From Escherichia phage MirsaeidiM_Esher2: DNA of 40,547 bases. Below are positions 2,297 through 9,225 of this stretch, piece after piece (positions within the stretch are counted from its first letter, which is position 1; the number at the start of each line of letters is the position of its first letter). The DNA is taken from the sequence record PQ464628.1; one strand, 5' to 3'. The notes below the pieces were generated by a model, which saw only the letters and a program-made list of their open reading frames with translations, did not search any database and was not told where the DNA came from. The position numbers and the translations under genes were made by a program.

Positions 2297-2390
2297 CTGA
2301 ATGAATAACTATAGGCGAAAACTGAATTAATAAGCAGTTAGTAACCTATAGTTACTACCAGACTAACCTACTGTTTTATAAGGAGTTTGG

Positions 2391-2413
2391 ACTTAACTAT
2401 CACTATAGGGAAG
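2391..2413 (+). promoter_or_regulatory. phage-RNAP promoter, phiOR-like (ACTTAACTATCACTATAGGGAAG)
   Basis: Matches the recurring 23-bp motif found 11 times in the window; lies after gene 19 and before the gene 19.5-like ORF, as phiOR does in T7. Confidence 0.7.
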
Positions 2414-2592
2414 ACCCCCGGTTACTTATAGTATTACTGTAGTGAATATACATATGCAGACTTTATGCAAGACCTTAGGAGGCAGACTCCGAGTTCTTAC
2501 CTAAGGCTTGCACCGATGGAAGGAGGGCGATATTAATCATAATCCCTCCAATACAGATAGTAAAGACCATAGATACAGGAGGTATGTAGCAT

Positions 2593-2751
2593 ATGGCAAA
2601 GACCAAAGCTGTACTTAAAGCTCTGGCGACCAATCGAGCTACATACAGGTTTCTTGCTGCTGTTCTACTTACTGCTGGCGTTACTACTGGAAGTCAGTGG
2701 GTCGGGTGGGTCGAGACTCTCGTATGTTCTCTGGTGTCTGAGTGTCATTAA
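2593..2751 (+). CDS. 19.5: small protein, T7 gp19.5-like (52 aa)
   Basis: ATG with SD AGGAGG 10 nt upstream; hydrophobic 52-aa product with RxTYRFL motif resembling recalled T7 gp19.5; below the 60-aa cutoff of the ORF track. Confidence 0.5.
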   Translation: MAKTKAVLKALATNRATYRFLAAVLLTAGVTTGSQWVGWVETLVCSLVSECH

Positions 2752-2860
2752 CGCCGTAATGGTAACAATCAACGAAAGGAGGTAGGGATGGACGAGGAGT
2801 CTTATGGGTCGTTCTCTGACGAAGATTATCAGACGGAGTGGGAATACTCGCATTGAAGAC

Positions 2861-2901
2861 CTAAGGTCAGTTCATAGCTGACGCTACTCTACTGACCTTA
2901 G
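2861..2901. repeat. perfect 10-bp inverted repeat (CTAAGGTCAG / CTGACCTTAG) with 21-nt loop
   Basis: Arms at 2861..2870 and 2892..2901 are exact reverse complements; located in the right-end non-coding region. Confidence 0.6.
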
Positions 2902-2988
2902 CTACTGTAGTCAAGGACTTTAGGTAACACCTTAAGAGAAGCTCACTTAGGGTCATCCTACTTATTGGTCCATCCTAGTGTCGCCTGA

Positions 2989-3025
2989 CCTACGGTCCTT
3001 GACCTACAGTGGCTGTGGCCTACAG
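2989..3025. repeat. short repeats CCTAC(A/G)G x3, right-end side
   Basis: CCTACGG at 2989, CCTACAG at 3003 and 3019; same motif as the array at 3266..3367; analogous to the CCTAAAG-type repeats near T7 ends. Confidence 0.5.
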
Positions 3026-3064
3026 TAGTGACGATGAGTTTTGGACCAAAAGTTTGAGACCACA

Positions 3065-3265
3065 TCTCACAGTTCAAGAACCTCAAGTCTCCCCATAGGC
3101 CCTCTTTCAGTCCAGACCAAAGGCCCTACCCAAGTCTATCATAAGGTTAGACCGATGGTCAAGACTTCAGGTCAACGATAGGTCTAGGCTATGGCTTAGG
3201 GAAGGACGATAGGTGGTGACTATTGGTCTGTCTTTGAGTCTCTATCTGTATCAGACCTTGAGTCA
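3065..3265. repeat. candidate terminal-repeat region (collapsed single copy) with genome end near 3065
   Basis: Starts TCTCACAGT, as the T7 left end does (TCTCACAGTGTACGG, recalled); flanked on both sides by CCTACAGT repeat arrays; boundaries approximate. Confidence 0.3.
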
Positions 3266-3322
3266 CTACCTACAGTCTAACTACCTACAGTCTAACTACC
3301 TACAGTCTAACTACCTACAGTC
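3266..3322. repeat. tandem 15-bp repeat CTACCTACAGTCTAA (3 full copies + 12-nt partial)
   Basis: Read directly; two further CCTACAGT copies at 3344..3367; produces the artefactual SNYLQ-repeat ORF 3213..3410. Confidence 0.9.
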
Positions 3323-3478
3323 ATCGACCATCGGTAATGCTGCTACCTACAGTCTAAACCTACAGTTAATAGACACAATGGCTATAGACTTAAGGTCTAA
3401 GACATGTTAGTCAAAGACTATATCCTCTTACACCATGGGGCCGACGATAGCTTAATCAATATTATTTCAAATTACCTA

Positions 3479-3507
3479 TTGACTATAGGTCCAGACTATG
3501 GCCTAAT
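3479..3507 (+). promoter_or_regulatory. candidate sigma70 early promoter (A1-like)
   Basis: TTGACT at 3479..3484, 17-nt spacer, weak -10 CCTAAT at 3502..3507; resembles T7 A1 context (TTGACT...CCTATAGG) as recalled. Confidence 0.35.
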
Positions 3508-3789
3508 AGCTTCCGTCAACACGACACGGCAACAACCGGATAGTGAAGACGCCGGTGTCATCCCGGTTAAGTAGACAGCCTGATAAGTCATACGAACAAC
3601 AGGCAGATGACAATAAGGTAGTAAGGTCGCTGAGGGCTTCCACTTCAGCAGGTCGGAAAGGTCCTAAAACCTAACGAGAGTCTGACCAGCTCGCCAAGTC
3701 TGCCACTGAGGTGGATAACCAGAGGAGGCAACGTGTCGCCCACTGAGGGGCTACAGCTCACAGTTTAGGTTAACAGGCTAAACAAATGC

Positions 3790-3819
3790 TTGACAAGATG
3801 TAACGATAAGATGTAATAT
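3790..3819 (+). promoter_or_regulatory. sigma70 early promoter (A3-like): TTGACA-18-TAATAT
   Basis: -35 TTGACA 3790..3795, -10 TAATAT 3814..3819 preceded by TG; surrounding sequence resembles T7 A3 (TTGACAACATGAAGTAA...TACCACATG). Confidence 0.6.
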
Positions 3820-3942
3820 TTACCACATCGAAACAACGGTGATGACCAACACTGAAATGGTCTACCTGAAGTCCTCTGACTGAAGGGAATGCTCTTTAAC
3901 AATCTGGATAAACTCTTAATGTGCGCCGATAGCGACTAACTA

Positions 3943-3990
3943 CAGGGCCTTTGAGTCTACATCTGAAGGCCCTGACTGATAGCCACTAAC
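3943..3990 (+). promoter_or_regulatory. 9-bp-stem hairpin plus conserved box CCTGACTGATAGCCACTAAC (RNase III R0.3-like site candidate)
   Basis: Stem 3943..3951 / 3966..3974 is perfectly complementary; no T-tract follows; immediately upstream of the first early ORF. Confidence 0.5.
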
Positions 3991-3997
3991 TTAAAGG

Positions 3998-4252
3998 ATG
4001 GACACTATGAAACACTTAAGCACAATCACTAATCGCAATGAAGTATTCGTGAACACTAAAGGTTATGCGTGGATTCAGCTTAAAGAGATGAGAGGAGCGC
4101 GTCACCGTGTGGTAGTGCGCAAGGTATCAAGCAAGCAGTTCAGCAACTACAGCGTCGATACTGTGCGTATAGACAACGAGACATACCTGATAGACGCGCA
4201 GATAACCGTGAGTCCTACAGTGGGCGTCTCAGCTCCTTATTTCGCTAACTGA
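3998..4252 (+). CDS. hypothetical early protein (84 aa; basic)
   Basis: First ORF downstream of the sigma70 promoters; SD AAGGA favours the second ATG at 4007; no similarity to T7 proteins I can recall. Confidence 0.55.
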   Translation: MDTMKHLSTITNRNEVFVNTKGYAWIQLKEMRGARHRVVVRKVSSKQFSNYSVDTVRIDNETYLIDAQITVSPTVGVSAPYFAN

Positions 4253-4265
4253 GAGTGATTAACTA

Positions 4266-4307
4266 CAGGTCGTTAGAATCATAGCGGCCTGACTGATAGT
4301 CACTAAC
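4266..4307 (+). promoter_or_regulatory. hairpin plus second copy of box CCTGACTGATAGTCACTAAC
   Basis: 7-bp stem 4266..4272 / 4285..4291 (one G-U); box 4288..4307 is 19/20 identical to 3971..3990; directly upstream of the ocr-like gene. Confidence 0.45.
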
Positions 4308-4335
4308 ACATAATTAACTTTGAGAGGATATAACT

Positions 4336-4839
4336 ATGGAACGTAATGCTAACGCATACTATGAGCTGCTGGCTGCAACCGTTGAGGCATTTATCGAGCG
4401 TATTCAGTACGACCATCTGACTCAAGATGATGACTACAGCGATGCGCTGCATGAGGTCGTAGACGGTCAGGTTCCACACTATTACCACGAGATTTTTACG
4501 GTGATGGCTGCTGATGGTATAGACCACGAGTTCGAAGACTCTGGGCTGATGCCTGAAACCAAGGACGTAACGCGTATACTACAAGCTCGCATCTATGAGG
4601 CGCTTTATAACGATGTGTCTAATAGCTTGGATGTAGTCTGGTTTGAGGCTGAAGAGGCAGACGAAGAGGATGAATATTGGGTAGTTGACGCTAAAACAGG
4701 CGCAATAATTGTGCAAGCTGTAGCTCTTGAGGTCGCTACTGCATGTGCCAAGGTCAACTATGCAATAGGTCGCCACCTGAAGGTGGAAGACATCAATGAT
4801 AACGTAGTGTTCGACCCTGCGGCTGAGGACTGCGAGTGA
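4336..4839 (+). CDS. 0.3: Ocr-like DNA-mimic anti-restriction protein with C-terminal extension
   Basis: 167 aa; residues ~40-95 ([43 protein letters not shown]) match recalled T7 Ocr; acidic; about 50 aa longer than the 117-aa T7 Ocr. Confidence 0.8.
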
Positions 4840-4988
4840 TGGTAACTTATGGTCTCTGCCAGCACCACGTCGCCAACGCCCGGCTTATGGTCAAGACCGG
4901 GCGGTTAACCCATGATGAGACTATGCGTCTCCTGAAGGTGGTCTACAAGCGCCGCAAGCGTATTCACGACAGTTTGCACGCTGAGTGA
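4839..4988 (+). CDS. hypothetical small basic protein (49 aa)
   Basis: ATG overlaps the ocr stop (TGATGG); open 49 codons; below ORF-track cutoff; Cys/His-containing, basic C-terminus. Confidence 0.35.
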   Translation: MVTYGLCQHHVANARLMVKTGRLTHDETMRLLKVVYKRRKRIHDSLHAE

Positions 4989-4995
4989 TAAACGA

Positions 4996-5021
4996 GAGGT
5001 CATCGACTGATAGGTGGCCTC
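4996..5021 (+). promoter_or_regulatory. hairpin GAGGTCA / TGGCCTC with GACTGATAG in the loop
   Basis: 7-bp stem incl. one G-U pair; shares the AGGTCA/TGGCCT core with hairpins at 8711, 16060 and 40490. Confidence 0.4.
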
Positions 5022-5054
5022 AAAGATTACCACTTACATTAATAGGGGTTAACT

Positions 5055-5144
5055 ATGAGTGTGGGATATTGGGTATGCCTAGCGCCAGTTATCTGGATGA
5101 TAGGCTATGGGTTATACGACTGTATTAAACGGAAATCACTATGA
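5055..5144 (+). CDS. hypothetical 29-aa hydrophobic peptide
   Basis: ATG with SD AGGGG upstream; stop overlaps next ATG (ATGA); very short, so weak. Confidence 0.25.
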   Translation: MSVGYWVCLAPVIWMIGYGLYDCIKRKSL

Positions 5145-5338
5145 GTCTTGCACTATTGATAGCCATAGGCTATGGACTTATCGCCTACGTGCTGGTGAGA
5201 GACATCAACAAAGCGCGTAAAGTCTACAAATTCAACTATGTACGTCTGGGCCGCTGGACTGTACGTCAACCTAACGGACGATTCATGCGCAACTTAGCGA
5301 ACGTCTGGGATATAGCAACTATTGGGAGCAAACTGTAA
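5141..5338 (+). CDS. hypothetical small membrane protein (65 aa)
   Basis: N-terminal hydrophobic segment LALLIAIGYGLIAYVLV; start overlaps preceding stop, stop overlaps next start (TAATG). Confidence 0.45.
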   Translation: MSLALLIAIGYGLIAYVLVRDINKARKVYKFNYVRLGRWTVRQPNGRFMRNLANVWDIATIGSKL

Positions 5339-5598
5339 TGAAAACCGTATACATTAACAAACCATCTAGCCATAGCCGTGTAGAGCAAATAGAGCGTGAC
5401 ATGTTCTTACATCGCCGCATGAGGGCTGAGGGCCATAAGTACGAACTGATGAGTCTGGCGTTTGGTGGACGACCGATCACTGACGATGGTAAACTTTTAG
5501 TCTCAGGCTGGAAGGCGATAGACCAACGGTCAACCATCAAGCACACGACTCACGGTGACTTCAGCCATCTCCACGCTAACCAACTGATATGCAAGTGA
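5338..5598 (+). CDS. hypothetical early protein (86 aa)
   Basis: Translationally coupled to the upstream ORF; occupies the position where T7 has gene 0.7 but is far too short for a kinase. Confidence 0.5.
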   Translation: MKTVYINKPSSHSRVEQIERDMFLHRRMRAEGHKYELMSLAFGGRPITDDGKLLVSGWKAIDQRSTIKHTTHGDFSHLHANQLICK

Positions 5599-5603
5599 TT
5601 ATG

Positions 5604-5626
5604 ACTTAACTATCACTATAGGACTC
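5604..5626 (+). promoter_or_regulatory. phage-RNAP promoter-like sequence directly upstream of the RNAP gene
   Basis: ACTTAACTATCACTATAGGACTC; identical to the phiOR-like site over 20 nt (5603..5622 = 2390..2409). Confidence 0.55.
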
Positions 5627-5695
5627 AAGGTCTAAGACTCCAAGTGAAAGACCAAAGAGACTTTAAGTGAAAGACTAATAACAAGGACTTTAAGT

Positions 5696-8377
5696 ATGAG
5701 CATCATCTCTATTGATAAACACGACTTCTCTGATGTGTCTAACACCATTGAGCCGTTTAACCTGCTGGCTGACCACTACGGGCAAGACCTTGCAGTCAAG
5801 CAGCTTCAGCTTGAGCATGAGGCATACACTGAAGGCGAGCGACGTTTCATCAAGAACCTTGAGCGACAGACTGAGCGCGGGGAACTGGCAGACAATCAGG
5901 TCGCCAAGCCTTTGATGCAGACTCTTGTACCTAAGATTGCGCAAGCAGTCAAGGAGTGGCACGAAGGCCAAGACGGGAAGCTGTCAACCTCTCGTCCTAG
6001 CGTAGCGTTCACCATGTTGAGCACTGAAGAGAAGGCCGTCAAGGACCGCTCTATGCGCATCTCCTGTGAGTCCGCTGCGGTTATCATACTGAAGGTCATA
6101 CTCTCCAAGCTGGTCAAGCCCGAAGGGATACCGATTACACCTATGGCCTCCGCGATAGGTCGCACACTTGAGGACGAAATCCGCTTCGGTCGCATCCGTG
6201 ACAAAGAGAAAGAGCACTTCAAGAAGGCGATAGCTGATAACCTGAATAAGCGGGCCGGGGCGTCCTACAAGAAAGCCTACATGCAAGCGGTCGAGGCGTC
6301 CATGCTGGAGCAAGGCCAACTGGAAGATGCGTGGGGGACTTGGAGTCCTACAGAGGCTGTCCACGTTGGCATCAAGATGCTTGAGATTGTCATCCAGTCA
6401 ACACAACTGGTCGAGCTTAAGCGTTACGGTGCTGGCAATGCAGCGGCTGATGTCGAGATGGTCCACCTGTCAGACTTCTGGGTCAAGAAGATGGCACAAC
6501 GTGGATTCAGCCTTGCGGGTATCGCACCAGTCTATCAGCCTTGCGTCGTTCCACCTAAGCCGTGGACGGGTGTCGTAGGCGGTGGTTACTGGGCCAAAGG
6601 TCGCAGACCATTACCGCTGATTCGCTTAGGCTCTAAGTCTGCGGTAGCACGTTACGAAGACGTGTACATGCCTGAAGTCTATGAAGCTGTGAACATCATT
6701 CAGAATACACCTTGGAAAGTGAACAAGAAGGTTCTGGACGTGGTGAACATGGTCGAGAAGCTGAACAACACGCCTATTGATGACATCCCTCAGATGGAAC
6801 CGCTGAAGCCTGAGGACTATGCGGGTGAGACTGAGGAGGAACTCAAGGCATGGAAGAAAGCTGCTGCTGGTATCTATCGCCGCGAGAAGGCCAGACAGTC
6901 ACGCAGGTTGTCACTGAGCTTTATCGTTAACCAAGCGAACAAGTTCTCTCAGTTCAAGGCTATATGGTTCCCGTACAACATGGACTGGCGCGGTCGCGTC
7001 TACGCTGTGCCGATGTTCAACCCTCAGGGTAACGACATGCAGAAGGGTCTCCTGACTCTGGCAGTTGGCAAGCCTATTGGTGCTGACGGTTTCAAATGGC
7101 TAAAGGTACACGGTGCAAACTGCGCGGGTGTCGATAAAGTCACCTTCGAGGAGCGCATCAAGTGGGTGGAAGACAACCACGACAACATCATGGCTGCTGC
7201 TAAAGCACCTATGGACAGCATTGAGTGGTGGGGAAAGTTAGACTCTCCGTTCTGTTTCCTCGCGTTCTGCTTCGAGTATGCTGGCGTAATGCGCCATGGC
7301 CTGTCTTACTCCTGCTCGCTGCCGATAGCGTTCGATGGGTCCTGCTCTGGGATTCAGCACTTCAGCGCGATGCTTCGTGACCACATCGGTGGACATGCGG
7401 TAAACCTGACGCCTTCCGGTAAAGTCCAAGACATCTACCGCATCGTGTCCGACCGCATTGAGGAGGAGCTTAAAGTCCTGCTGGTTAACGGCACGGACAA
7501 CGAGATGGTAACTCACGAGGACAAGAAAACTGGTGAGATTACCGAGCGTCTCAAGCTGGGGACACGAGAGCTGGCCCGTCAGTGGCTGACCTACGGTATG
7601 TCACGCAAGGTTACTAAGCGCTCAGTCATGACTCTGGTCTACGGGTCGAAAGAGTACGGCTTCGCAGACCAAGTTTACGAGGACATCGTGATGCCCGCGA
7701 TTGACTCAGGGTCTGGCGCTATGTTCACCGAACCAAGCCAAGCGTCCCGCTTCATGGCTAAGATGATTTGGGAAGCTGTGAGCGTGACCGTAGTTGCTGC
7801 GGTAGACGCTATGAAGTGGCTTCAAGGTGCTGCCAAGCTGCTGGCTGCTGAAGTGAAAGACAAGAAGACTGGAGAAATCCTGAAGCCTTGCCTTCCGGTA
7901 CACTGGGTCACGCCTGATGGGTTCCCGGTCTGGCAGGAATACCGCAAGAAGGATACCACGCGTCTGAACCTGATGTTCTTAGGGTCATTCAACCTTCAGC
8001 CTACCGTCAACAAAGGCACGAAGAAAGAGCTGGATAAGCACAAGCAGGAGTCAGGCATTAGCCCGAACTTCGTCCACTCACAAGATGGTAGCCACCTCCG
8101 CAAGACTGTAGTCCATACTCACCGCAAGTATGGCGTGATGTCGTTCGCAGTGATTCACGATAGCTTCGGGACCATCCCGGCTGACGCTGAGTATCTGTTC
8201 CGTGGGGTCCGTGAGACTATGGTAGAGACCTACCGCGACAACGATGTGCTGCTTGACTTCTACGAGCAGTTTGAATACCAGCTTCACGAGAGCCAGCGCG
8301 ATAAGTTGCCAGAGCTTCCGAAGAAAGGTAAACTGAATATCGAAGACATCTTGTCTTCAGACTTTGCATTCGCCTAA
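5696..8377 (+). CDS. 1: single-subunit DNA-directed RNA polymerase (T7 gp1 homolog)
   Basis: 893 aa; colinear with recalled T7 RNAP (PFNLLADHYG, GRIRD, QPCVVPPKPWTG, DGSCSGIQHFSAM, HDSFGTIPADA, ending SDFAFA). Confidence 0.97.
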   Translation: MSIISIDKHDFSDVSNTIEPFNLLADHYGQDLAVKQLQLEHEAYTEGERRFIKNLERQTERGELADNQVAKPLMQTLVPKIAQAVKEWHEGQDGKLSTSRPSVAFTMLSTEEKAVKDRSMRISCESAAVIILKVILSKLVKPEGIPITPMASAIGRTLEDEIRFGRIRDKEKEHFKKAIADNLNKRAGASYKKAYMQAVEASMLEQGQLEDAWGTWSPTEAVHVGIKMLEIVIQSTQLVELKRYGAGNAAADVEMVHLSDFWVKKMAQRGFSLAGIAPVYQPCVVPPKPWTGVVGGGYWAKGRRPLPLIRLGSKSAVARYEDVYMPEVYEAVNIIQNTPWKVNKKVLDVVNMVEKLNNTPIDDIPQMEPLKPEDYAGETEEELKAWKKAAAGIYRREKARQSRRLSLSFIVNQANKFSQFKAIWFPYNMDWRGRVYAVPMFNPQGNDMQKGLLTLAVGKPIGADGFKWLKVHGANCAGVDKVTFEERIKWVEDNHDNIMAAAKAPMDSIEWWGKLDSPFCFLAFCFEYAGVMRHGLSYSCSLPIAFDGSCSGIQHFSAMLRDHIGGHAVNLTPSGKVQDIYRIVSDRIEEELKVLLVNGTDNEMVTHEDKKTGEITERLKLGTRELARQWLTYGMSRKVTKRSVMTLVYGSKEYGFADQVYEDIVMPAIDSGSGAMFTEPSQASRFMAKMIWEAVSVTVVAAVDAMKWLQGAAKLLAAEVKDKKTGEILKPCLPVHWVTPDGFPVWQEYRKKDTTRLNLMFLGSFNLQPTVNKGTKKELDKHKQESGISPNFVHSQDGSHLRKTVVHTHRKYGVMSFAVIHDSFGTIPADAEYLFRGVRETMVETYRDNDVLLDFYEQFEYQLHESQRDKLPELPKKGKLNIEDILSSDFAFA

Positions 8378-8391
8378 CAGGAGAGAGAGCT

Positions 8392-8607
8392 ATGAAATTT
8401 GCACACAAGCATACTGGCGTTAATGGTGGGACTCAAATCGTGACCGTAACAGAACACAACGGCAAGGGTCTGGTGAAGACCACGGTCATCCCTACCGAGA
8501 TGTCCAAGCAGCTTAACATCCCGTTCAAGACTCTTGTAGATCTGGTCGAGTCCAGCCATGAGAAGTACCTGAAGGACGCAGTGTCCAAGCTGGAGCAGGC
8601 CAAATGA
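8392..8607 (+). CDS. hypothetical protein (71 aa) between RNAP and promoter phi1.1
   Basis: Strong SD AGGAGA 8 nt upstream of ATG; no T7 counterpart recalled. Confidence 0.55.
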   Translation: MKFAHKHTGVNGGTQIVTVTEHNGKGLVKTTVIPTEMSKQLNIPFKTLVDLVESSHEKYLKDAVSKLEQAK

Positions 8608-8681
8608 CAGACCTACAGTTACTGGCCTTGTGGCTAGGAGCACTCGCAGTATTCACTTTAATCCAACGCAGAAGAGGTTAA

Positions 8682-8704
8682 CCTAAACTATCACTATAGG
8701 ATTA
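8682..8704 (+). promoter_or_regulatory. phage-RNAP promoter (CCTAAACTATCACTATAGGATTA)
   Basis: Consensus 23-mer; upstream of the gene 1.1-like ORF. Confidence 0.8.
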
Positions 8705-8747
8705 GACTCAAGGTCATGACTCAAAGTCGTGGCCTTCATGATTAACC
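8705..8747 (+). promoter_or_regulatory. RNase III-type hairpin candidate (R1.1-like)
   Basis: Upper stem AGGTCA 8711..8716 / TGGCCT 8730..8735 with 13-nt loop; motif TAGACTCAAGGTCAT...GTGGCCTTYATGRTTA shared with 16049.. and 40481.. Confidence 0.45.
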
Positions 8748-8777
8748 CTAAATAAACACTACTGGAGATTTAACCTT

Positions 8778-8957
8778 ATGTATCAGAATACTATCAACTT
8801 CGAGCGCATCCGTGAACGTCAGCAGACTGAAGGTTACATTCCGAAGGGTCGCAAGCTGAACAAGACTAAACGTGGTGGTGGCGTGAAGGGTGCTTTCCGT
8901 AATGCTGAAGGTAAAGACTCTCTGGTCAACCAAGAGAAATACTTCGTAGGAGCATAA
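8778..8957 (+). CDS. 1.1: small basic protein, T7 gp1.1-like (59 aa)
   Basis: ATG with GGAG upstream; contains KGRKLNKTKR as recalled for T7 gp1.1; below ORF-track cutoff. Confidence 0.6.
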   Translation: MYQNTINFERIRERQQTEGYIPKGRKLNKTKRGGGVKGAFRNAEGKDSLVNQEKYFVGA

Positions 8958-8961
8958 CCAA

Positions 8962-9225
8962 ATGGGCCGACTTTATAGTGGCAACCTCAACGCTTTCAAA
9001 GCGGCGTGTAACAGGCTCTATCAGTTAGACTTCGCTGTCATATCTCAAGAGTTTCAAGACTATACGTCACGCCAAGAGTGCATGAAACTCAGGGTGGAGG
9101 ACCGAGCTGGTAACATCTTCGCGCTTGAGACCTTCGCACACTACGATGAAGACGTGCTGTATAATACTGCAACAGACTACCTCAACGGTCTCGCTGACCA
9201 TCTCGACACATGGAGCAAAGCATAA
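8962..9225 (+). CDS. 1.2: gp1.2-like protein (dGTP triphosphohydrolase inhibitor in T7)
   Basis: 87 aa; MGRLYSGNL..AFKAA..YDEDVL matches recalled T7 gp1.2; SD AGGAG. Confidence 0.85.
   Translation: MGRLYSGNLNAFKAACNRLYQLDFAVISQEFQDYTSRQECMKLRVEDRAGNIFALETFAHYDEDVLYNTATDYLNGLADHLDTWSKA

Follow-up and report, generated by a model that had tools for sequence, protein, structure and literature searches.

Gene 0.2 of a K1F-like Escherichia phage: a conserved, accessory immediate-early gene in an RNase III-delimited cassette next to ocr

Layout of the early region

The window considered here is the whole 40,547-nucleotide stretch of DNA recorded for Escherichia phage MirsaeidiM_Esher2 (PQ464628.1). 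It belongs to a Kayfunavirus, a K1F-like podovirus of the T7 type. Over the 1.2 kb around gene 0.2 it has 99.1% DNA identity to Escherichia phage Pipis and about 92% to coliphage K1F, and matches to this region were found in 216 phage records, most of them from Kayfunavirus. The sequence of the window is a circular permutation, in which the large terminase ORF (533-2296) and a phage promoter (2396) are followed by a repeat-rich genome end and then by the early region. The physical ends of the genome should therefore lie somewhere in about 2400-3400. The non-coding left end contains a perfect 15-nt tandem repeat, ACTACCTACAGTCTA, present 3.9 times (the coordinates given are 3265-3322 and 2945-2977), and CTACAG motifs are scattered across it. 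These left-end repeats resemble the short repeat arrays that adjoin the terminal repeat of T7.

Behind the left end the early order is an A3-like sigma70 promoter, an rrn-type boxA, an RNase III-type site, gene 0.2, another RNase III-type site and ocr, all on the plus strand. Gene 0.2 (4007..4252) is the first conserved ORF in this phage. ORFs have been annotated 5' of it in Pipis (window 3404-3574, corresponding to Pipis CDS 35-205) and in K1F ('gp0.1', 352-567), and the two do not correspond to each other. At 3481 there is an A1-like TTGACT promoter element with which the Pipis-type ORF overlaps, and the similarity of the window to most relatives begins only at about 3790. These upstream ORFs are probably not genes.

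The sigma70 promoter, TTGACA-18-TAATAT at 3790..3819 (+), matches at 10 of 12 positions, is the best match in 2300-5800 and is the positional homologue of T7 A3. Transcription would start at about 3827, and the downstream sequence TACCACATCGAAAC aligns with the A3 start region. The boxA, (T)GCTCTTTAACAA at 3891..3902 (+), is the single exact match in the window and lies between the sigma70 promoter and the first RNase III site; the T7 leader has a boxA, CGCTCTTTAACAA, at the same place (about 803-815 in locus L003). This leader element suggests Nus-dependent antitermination of early transcription. Promoter cores for the phage RNA polymerase (RNAP) were found 11 times, all on the plus strand, compared with 0.3 expected, and none occurs between 2409 and 5609. 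The first core downstream of gene 0.2, ACTATCACTATAGG at 5609..5622 (+), marks the end of the region transcribed by host RNAP only. It is about 75 nt upstream of the RNAP gene (5696-8377), so that the phage RNAP could transcribe its own gene. A scan for intrinsic terminators found none, and for this reason the hairpin 3' of gene 0.2 is not taken to be a terminator. With a sigma70 promoter upstream, no phage promoter in 2409-5609 and no terminator-like site, gene 0.2 is assigned to class I, the genes transcribed by host RNAP.

Two hairpins flank the gene. For the one at its 5' side (3930..3990, +) the earlier note had described a 9-bp stem, and the upper stem is indeed perfect over 9 bp, with CAGGGCCTT at 3943-3951 pairing with AAGGCCCTG at 3966-3974 above an internal loop and a lower stem. 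The 71-nt fold (3925-3995) has an energy of -20.5 kcal/mol (z -3.3). The hairpin between gene 0.2 and ocr (4253..4307, +) has a 10-bp upper stem (4266-4275/4282-4291) and a lower stem at about 4255-4262/4297-4304; its fold (4250-4320) of -23.6 kcal/mol (z -5.2) was matched by none of 200 shuffled sequences. A third RNase III-type site was located after gene 0.35 by alignment and pattern scan (4984..5037, +; -17.4 kcal/mol and z -3.5 for 4985-5045). All three early-region hairpins align with the experimentally mapped T7 sites R0.5, R1, R1.1 and R1.3, with which they have the core AGTGAT.AAC..AGGTC-loop-GGCCT...GAT..CACT.AC in common, and 5 of the 10 upper-stem pairs in this alignment show compensatory double changes. 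A search of window positions 2300-9000 with Rfam matched no family. Judged from their sequence and fold, the hairpins on either side of gene 0.2 are T7-type RNase III processing sites of the kind that is ordinary for T7-like phages. The earlier note had also pointed to a near-identical hairpin and box after the gene. A similar hairpin with a 20-nt shared box is there, but it is not specific to this gene: a combined pattern and fold scan gave at least six canonical sites in the window, all intercistronic and on the plus strand (3944, 4267, 4997, 8711, 16060 and 40490).

Dunn and Studier reportedly described in 1983 how cleavage at the early T7 sites (R0.3, R0.5, R1, R1.1 and R1.3) turns the polycistronic transcript into stable mRNAs that carry 3' hairpins. 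The T7 leader is laid out in the same way as that of the window phage, with an A3-type promoter, boxA and then an RNase III site. In T7, gene 0.3 comes directly after this post-boxA site, whereas in the window phage an extra gene and an extra site are interposed. By analogy, we infer that host RNase III would cut both sites flanking gene 0.2. The gene would then have a monocistronic mRNA of its own, with some 30 nt of leader and a hairpin protecting the 3' end.

Gene 0.2, its product and its neighbors

The ORF at 3998..4252 (+) is 84 aa long, or 81 aa if translation starts at the second ATG at 4007. The earlier note had favored this second start for its better Shine-Dalgarno sequence, and the choice is borne out. 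The sole Shine-Dalgarno-like sequence, AAGGA at 3994..3998 (+), read directly from the DNA, lies 8 nt before ATG 4007 and overlaps the first ATG. The second ATG is also the start in the PHROG profile, in all homologues and in the GenBank annotations of K1F and Pipis.

The ORF matches PHROG 10124 with an E-value of 3.5e-39, residues 4-84 of the 84-aa ORF aligning with profile positions 1-77 of 77. Its orthologue in K1F, gp0.2 (CAJ29341; AM084414 785..1030), has 94% amino acid identity and is 81 aa in both phages; its gene likewise stands between the RNase III site of the leader and gene 0.3, and there is no substantive difference between the two. The description of the gene as unrecognized was thus mistaken. 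It is annotated as gene 0.2 in K1F, is labeled a hypothetical protein in most related records and is covered by PHROG 10124. The K1F gp0.2 family is an already annotated hypothetical family and the founding type of that PHROG.

Other resources gave little on this protein. Pfam, NCBIfam and PADLOC had no meaningful match for gp0.2, a PDB sequence search with the family profile returned one junk match (E 0.72), Foldseek against BFVD with the gp0.2 model found uncharacterized podophage proteins only, and literature searches found no paper on gp0.2 in the library they covered. A Pfam hit to DUF2113 (E 0.013; 15 bits, where the cutoff is 27) was dismissed as noise. A local HMM match to the SH3_5 domain recurred, but with an hhalign probability of 17% it was not accepted as homology. 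Some database entries for this region are in error. The gp0.2/ocr region is called 'similar to N4-like RNA polymerase' in OR594184 and OR594182, the ocr gene of IME177 (MZ398247) is named 'protein kinase', and in LT594300 (LM33_P1) a 'Phage protein kinase' feature listed within the matching region was likewise noted as an annotation error.

Gene 0.2 could in principle be a chance ORF in a structured leader where the RNA is conserved and not the protein; conserved RNA structure is abundant here. The pattern of substitution argues against this. Among eight Kayfunavirus sequences the variable columns of gene 0.2 are distributed 13/13/26 over the three codon positions. In six of eight close comparisons dN/dS is 0.13-0.40; the other two, both with phage LS3, give 0.77 and 0.94 because of a cluster of N-terminal changes. 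In comparisons with the Phapecoctavirus homologues dS has reached saturation but dN is only 0.17-0.28, with an excess of third-position changes. Amino acid conservation of 36-70% persists in unrelated phage families where DNA similarity is gone, the Shine-Dalgarno spacing is good, and the hairpins lie outside the ORF. With the remote amino acid homologues, the clusters found by profile search and the codon-position and dN/dS patterns, the chance-ORF reading was refuted, and it is given next to no credence. Gene 0.2 has the sequence signature of a genuine protein-coding gene.

The product is a 9.2-kDa protein that is basic, as the earlier note had stated, with a pI of 9.9 and a net charge of +5. 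This is a property of the family, in which the pI is 8-10 in 37 of 40 members. AlphaFold2 (AF2) models built with 19 and then 28 sequences (mean pLDDT 65, then 72) give an all-beta meander of six strands, with the highest confidence at residues 41-60 and low confidence in the C-terminal tail. Eight residues are invariant in 28 diverse members (R38, S42, S46, N47, S49, Y60, L61 and D63), and the window protein has all of them, as well as the core motif R[KRV][VI]xS[KR]xFSN[YWFH]S[VI]DTV....YL[IV]D. One subfamily, which includes the window protein and the N4-like members, also has a conserved APY[F] C-terminal tail. The protein is predicted to be soluble, basic and all-beta. A role in the membrane or in superinfection exclusion has been hinted at in the Pipis record (PV714130), where a note reads 'region of a membrane-bound protein predicted to be embedded in the membrane'; that note is the one point in favor of such a role. 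Against it, the maximum 19-residue Kyte-Doolittle mean is 0.89 and the GRAVY is -0.31, with no hydrophobic or transmembrane segment, and the model is that of an all-beta soluble domain. A membrane-associated protein is very improbable, and an integral membrane or holin-like protein was rejected for want of a hydrophobic segment.

Downstream, the ORF at 4336..4839 (+) encodes an ocr homologue (gene 0.3) of 167 aa that matches PF08684 over residues 8-94 (E 3.6e-30) and PHROG 2568; the ORF under study does precede ocr, as had been claimed. After an acidic stretch the ocr homologue has a C-terminal extension of about 70 aa with no family match. The extension is present in IME177 and absent in Vec13 (110 aa, L010 1610-1942) and in T7 (117 aa). 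No homologue of the T7 gp0.7 kinase is encoded in the stretch from ocr to gene 1 (4839-5696); the ORFs of 50, 65 and 86 aa found there belong to PHROGs 5058, 2385 and 7066, all families without an assigned function. A T7-type kinase is present in a distant relative, the metagenomic phage L008.

Distribution of the family and the 317-bp cassette

Homologues of gp0.2 are found by tblastn in 118 phage records, down to 36% identity. The earlier note had looked to conservation and synteny in relatives, and both are seen, in the early regions of five groups of virulent phages. Identity is at least 80% in Kayfunavirus, about 70% in the 150-kb myoviruses of Phapecoctavirus, about 67% in Klebsiella Przondovirus, about 59% in Ermolevavirus (phiKT and PGT2) and 36-48% in N4-like Gamaleyavirus. 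The value of about 70% for podoviruses compared with 150-kb myoviruses implies that the gene was transferred horizontally not long ago. When 1.84 billion representative proteins were searched with the family profile, only 16 clusters were returned, all of small proteins except for one 189-aa fusion and one spurious SH3_5-repeat amidase. No relative was detected by tblastn in 72,556 plasmids, and 185,579 genomes of bacteria and archaea were scanned with the same outcome. This is a small family, found only in phage and phage-like contigs in the searches run.

In Przondovirus the homologue is the first gene, immediately 5' of Ocr (L021) or of SAM lyase (L015). In three distant metagenomic autographiviruses (L006-L008) it is the first ORF after a non-coding left end of about 1.2 kb, upstream of the RNAP gene; a boxA lies upstream of it in L006 and L007, where it follows directly, and in L008 it comes after an RNase III-type site. 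In the Gamaleyavirus St11Ph5 the homologue has RNAP1 subunit genes on either side, within the leftmost 7 kb, and the Phapecoctavirus copies are placed between promoter-like TTGAC elements and GC-rich stem-loops. The L008 member (P0049, 189 aa, 5001-5570) is the fusion, a gp0.2 domain followed at its C terminus by an extension of some 115 aa. Its gene comes first, at the place taken by gene 0.3 in T7, and no PF08684 match was recorded in the L008 locus. The extension had no PHROG match and only a sub-threshold one to DUF7447, so it offers no domain-fusion ('Rosetta-stone') hint to function.

Within Kayfunavirus, gene 0.2 comes and goes as a unit. The 20-nt box has two copies in the window, compared with none expected by chance. 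The left copy (CCTGACTGATAGYCACTAAC / CCTGACTGATAGCCACTAAC, 3971..3990, +) is in the 3' arm of the RNase III site and forms the left boundary of the cassette; the right copy (CCTGACTGATAGYCACTAAC / CCTGACTGATAGTCACTAAC, 4288..4307, +) lies 317 nt from it. Gene 0.2 and its downstream hairpin thus form a 317-bp cassette bounded by a 20-nt direct repeat. In alignments with the window and K1F, the relatives IME177, PDP351P4 and Pkp-1 lack exactly the segment from repeat to repeat. These gene-0.2-minus relatives have a single hybrid RNase III site with one repeat copy, and the ocr ribosome-binding site comes directly after it. By a rough count, about 70 of the 216 records that share the region carry a gp0.2 at least 80% identical. 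Many Kayfunaviruses lack the gene, which is therefore dispensable on at least some hosts.

Other small genes are inserted and reordered at the same place. Vec13 has a cassette with a 92-aa ORF upstream of gene 0.2 (L010 930-1208), and in LS3 that ORF lies between gene 0.2 and ocr (L018 1095-1373). This ORF (MRLNKATAEAFRKELE...) is a second shuffled early cassette, with no Pfam match. Enterobacter and Cronobacter relatives have yet another gene 3' of gene 0.2. The claim that gene 0.2 is the first early gene needs qualifying in this light: it describes the usual position, and the gene is the first conserved ORF in the window phage, but in Vec13 another cassette stands ahead of it.

The boundaries of these insertions and deletions suggest that the repeated RNase III sites could act as recombination joints for the gain, loss and shuffling of early cassettes. 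A comparable arrangement is said to have been described by Arbiol et al. in 2010 for T4-type phages, in which small early ORFs flanked by a promoter-early stem-loop (PeSL) make up mobile regulatory cassettes. The principle is shared, in that a repeated regulatory element flanking small early ORFs permits them to be gained, lost or reordered. The Phapecoctavirus copies of gp0.2 have exactly this PeSL-like look of promoter and stem-loop. The Kayfunavirus and Przondovirus systems differ from it, however, since their repeat is an RNase III processing site and not a promoter stem-loop. Taken together, gene 0.2 is shown to be a conserved, immediate-early, accessory and horizontally moving gene in an RNase III-delimited cassette that adjoins the anti-restriction locus.

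Possible functions of gp0.2

The distribution of gp0.2, with five phage groups, presence/absence polymorphism and a location 5' of Ocr or SAM lyase, is in keeping with a host-directed accessory factor, and the protein most probably acts on a component of the host. It has its neighborhood and its immediate-early timing in common with Ocr (T7 gp0.3) and SAM lyase (T3 gp0.3). There the likeness ends. Ocr is a strongly acidic DNA mimic, while gp0.2 has no resemblance to Ocr or SAM lyase in sequence or charge and matches neither PF08684 nor PF23780. An Ocr-type DNA mimic was rejected for gp0.2 on the missing PF08684 match and the basic pI and net charge.

Two kinds of host target come into question. 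Our tentative preference, at somewhat short of even odds, is that gp0.2 is an accessory immediate-early counter-defence factor, a role suggested by position and distribution. It is favored because the gene adjoins Ocr or SAM lyase, is patchy within the genus and is spread across unrelated virulent phages; adjacency, patchiness and spread are features used elsewhere to nominate anti-defence genes. The leading regions of Autographiviridae have been described as variable, with abundant anti-defence genes (PMC12455610). Position and patchy distribution would suit a host-takeover protein equally well, and host takeover is the main rival. On that account gp0.2 would act on a housekeeping component that is conserved in the Enterobacteriaceae, inhibiting or redirecting it; examples would be a nucleoid-associated protein, RNA polymerase, or part of the division, cytoskeleton or RNA-decay machinery. 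Small early inhibitors of this kind are familiar from T7, where gp0.4 acts on FtsZ, gp0.6 on MreB and gp2 on RNAP. The class I inhibitors of T7 have 50-90 aa, early expression, dispensability and patchy distribution in common with gp0.2, and its timing, size and position are theirs. The conserved basic charge would suit a nucleic acid or an acidic partner, and since the sequence is highly conserved in phages of E. coli, Klebsiella, Enterobacter and Cronobacter, the target may well be conserved too. Moreover, with no gp0.7 kinase encoded between ocr and gene 1, the window phage must leave the work of takeover to other early proteins. On the other hand, takeover functions are usually genus-wide, whereas gene 0.2 is absent from many close relatives. 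It adjoins Ocr or SAM lyase and not replication or transcription genes, and gp0.2 has no similarity to any known takeover protein; it has no detectable homology to the T7 class I inhibitors, which are in separate PHROGs and have no Pfam family in common with it. Host takeover is regarded as possible, if doubtful.

A different suggestion is that gp0.2 binds nucleic acid and regulates the early expression of the phage itself, for instance as an RNA chaperone, a modulator of RNase III processing or boxA antitermination, or a protector of the entering DNA end. A small basic beta protein encoded right after boxA and between RNase III sites would be well placed for this. Such a role is weakened because the family also occurs in Phapecoctavirus and the N4-like group, where neither a boxA nor a T7-type RNase III site was seen in the flanks of the gp0.2 gene. 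Moreover, there are relatives that share this leader and these sites and function without gene 0.2. Such a regulatory role is considered improbable.

If gp0.2 is a counter-defence factor, its partner would be a host component dangerous to the phage during DNA entry or immediately afterwards, which gp0.2 would bind and neutralize. The contact would probably be made via the conserved basic, hydroxyl-rich strand-loop motif RK[VI]xS[KR]xFSN[YWFH]S[VI]DTV...YL[IV]D. A bolder form of the counter-defence proposal, which is speculative and rather unlikely as it stands, is that gp0.2 founds a new, structurally unassigned counter-defence family that disarms a widespread enterobacterial defence directed at the genome as it enters, earlier than type I restriction or together with it. 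Its gene would be a self-contained early cassette moving between podoviruses, N4-like phages and large myoviruses, and the RNase III sites of T7-like phages would have a second role, as the recombination joints of an 'anti-defence cassette array'.

Seen as the outcome of a genome scan, gene 0.2 is an annotated hypothetical gene between ordinary RNase III sites. The suggestion of the earlier note that its product is directed at the host is reasonable, and is better motivated now by the distribution, the cassette behavior and the neighborhood of the gene. The first proteins made by a T7-type phage decide the survival of the incoming DNA, with Ocr as the textbook case. Transcribed ahead of ocr, present in five lineages and exchanged as a cassette, gp0.2 is a reasonable candidate for anti-defence and host-takeover screens. 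Kayfunaviruses that naturally have or lack gene 0.2, some of which are used in therapy work, provide a ready comparison.
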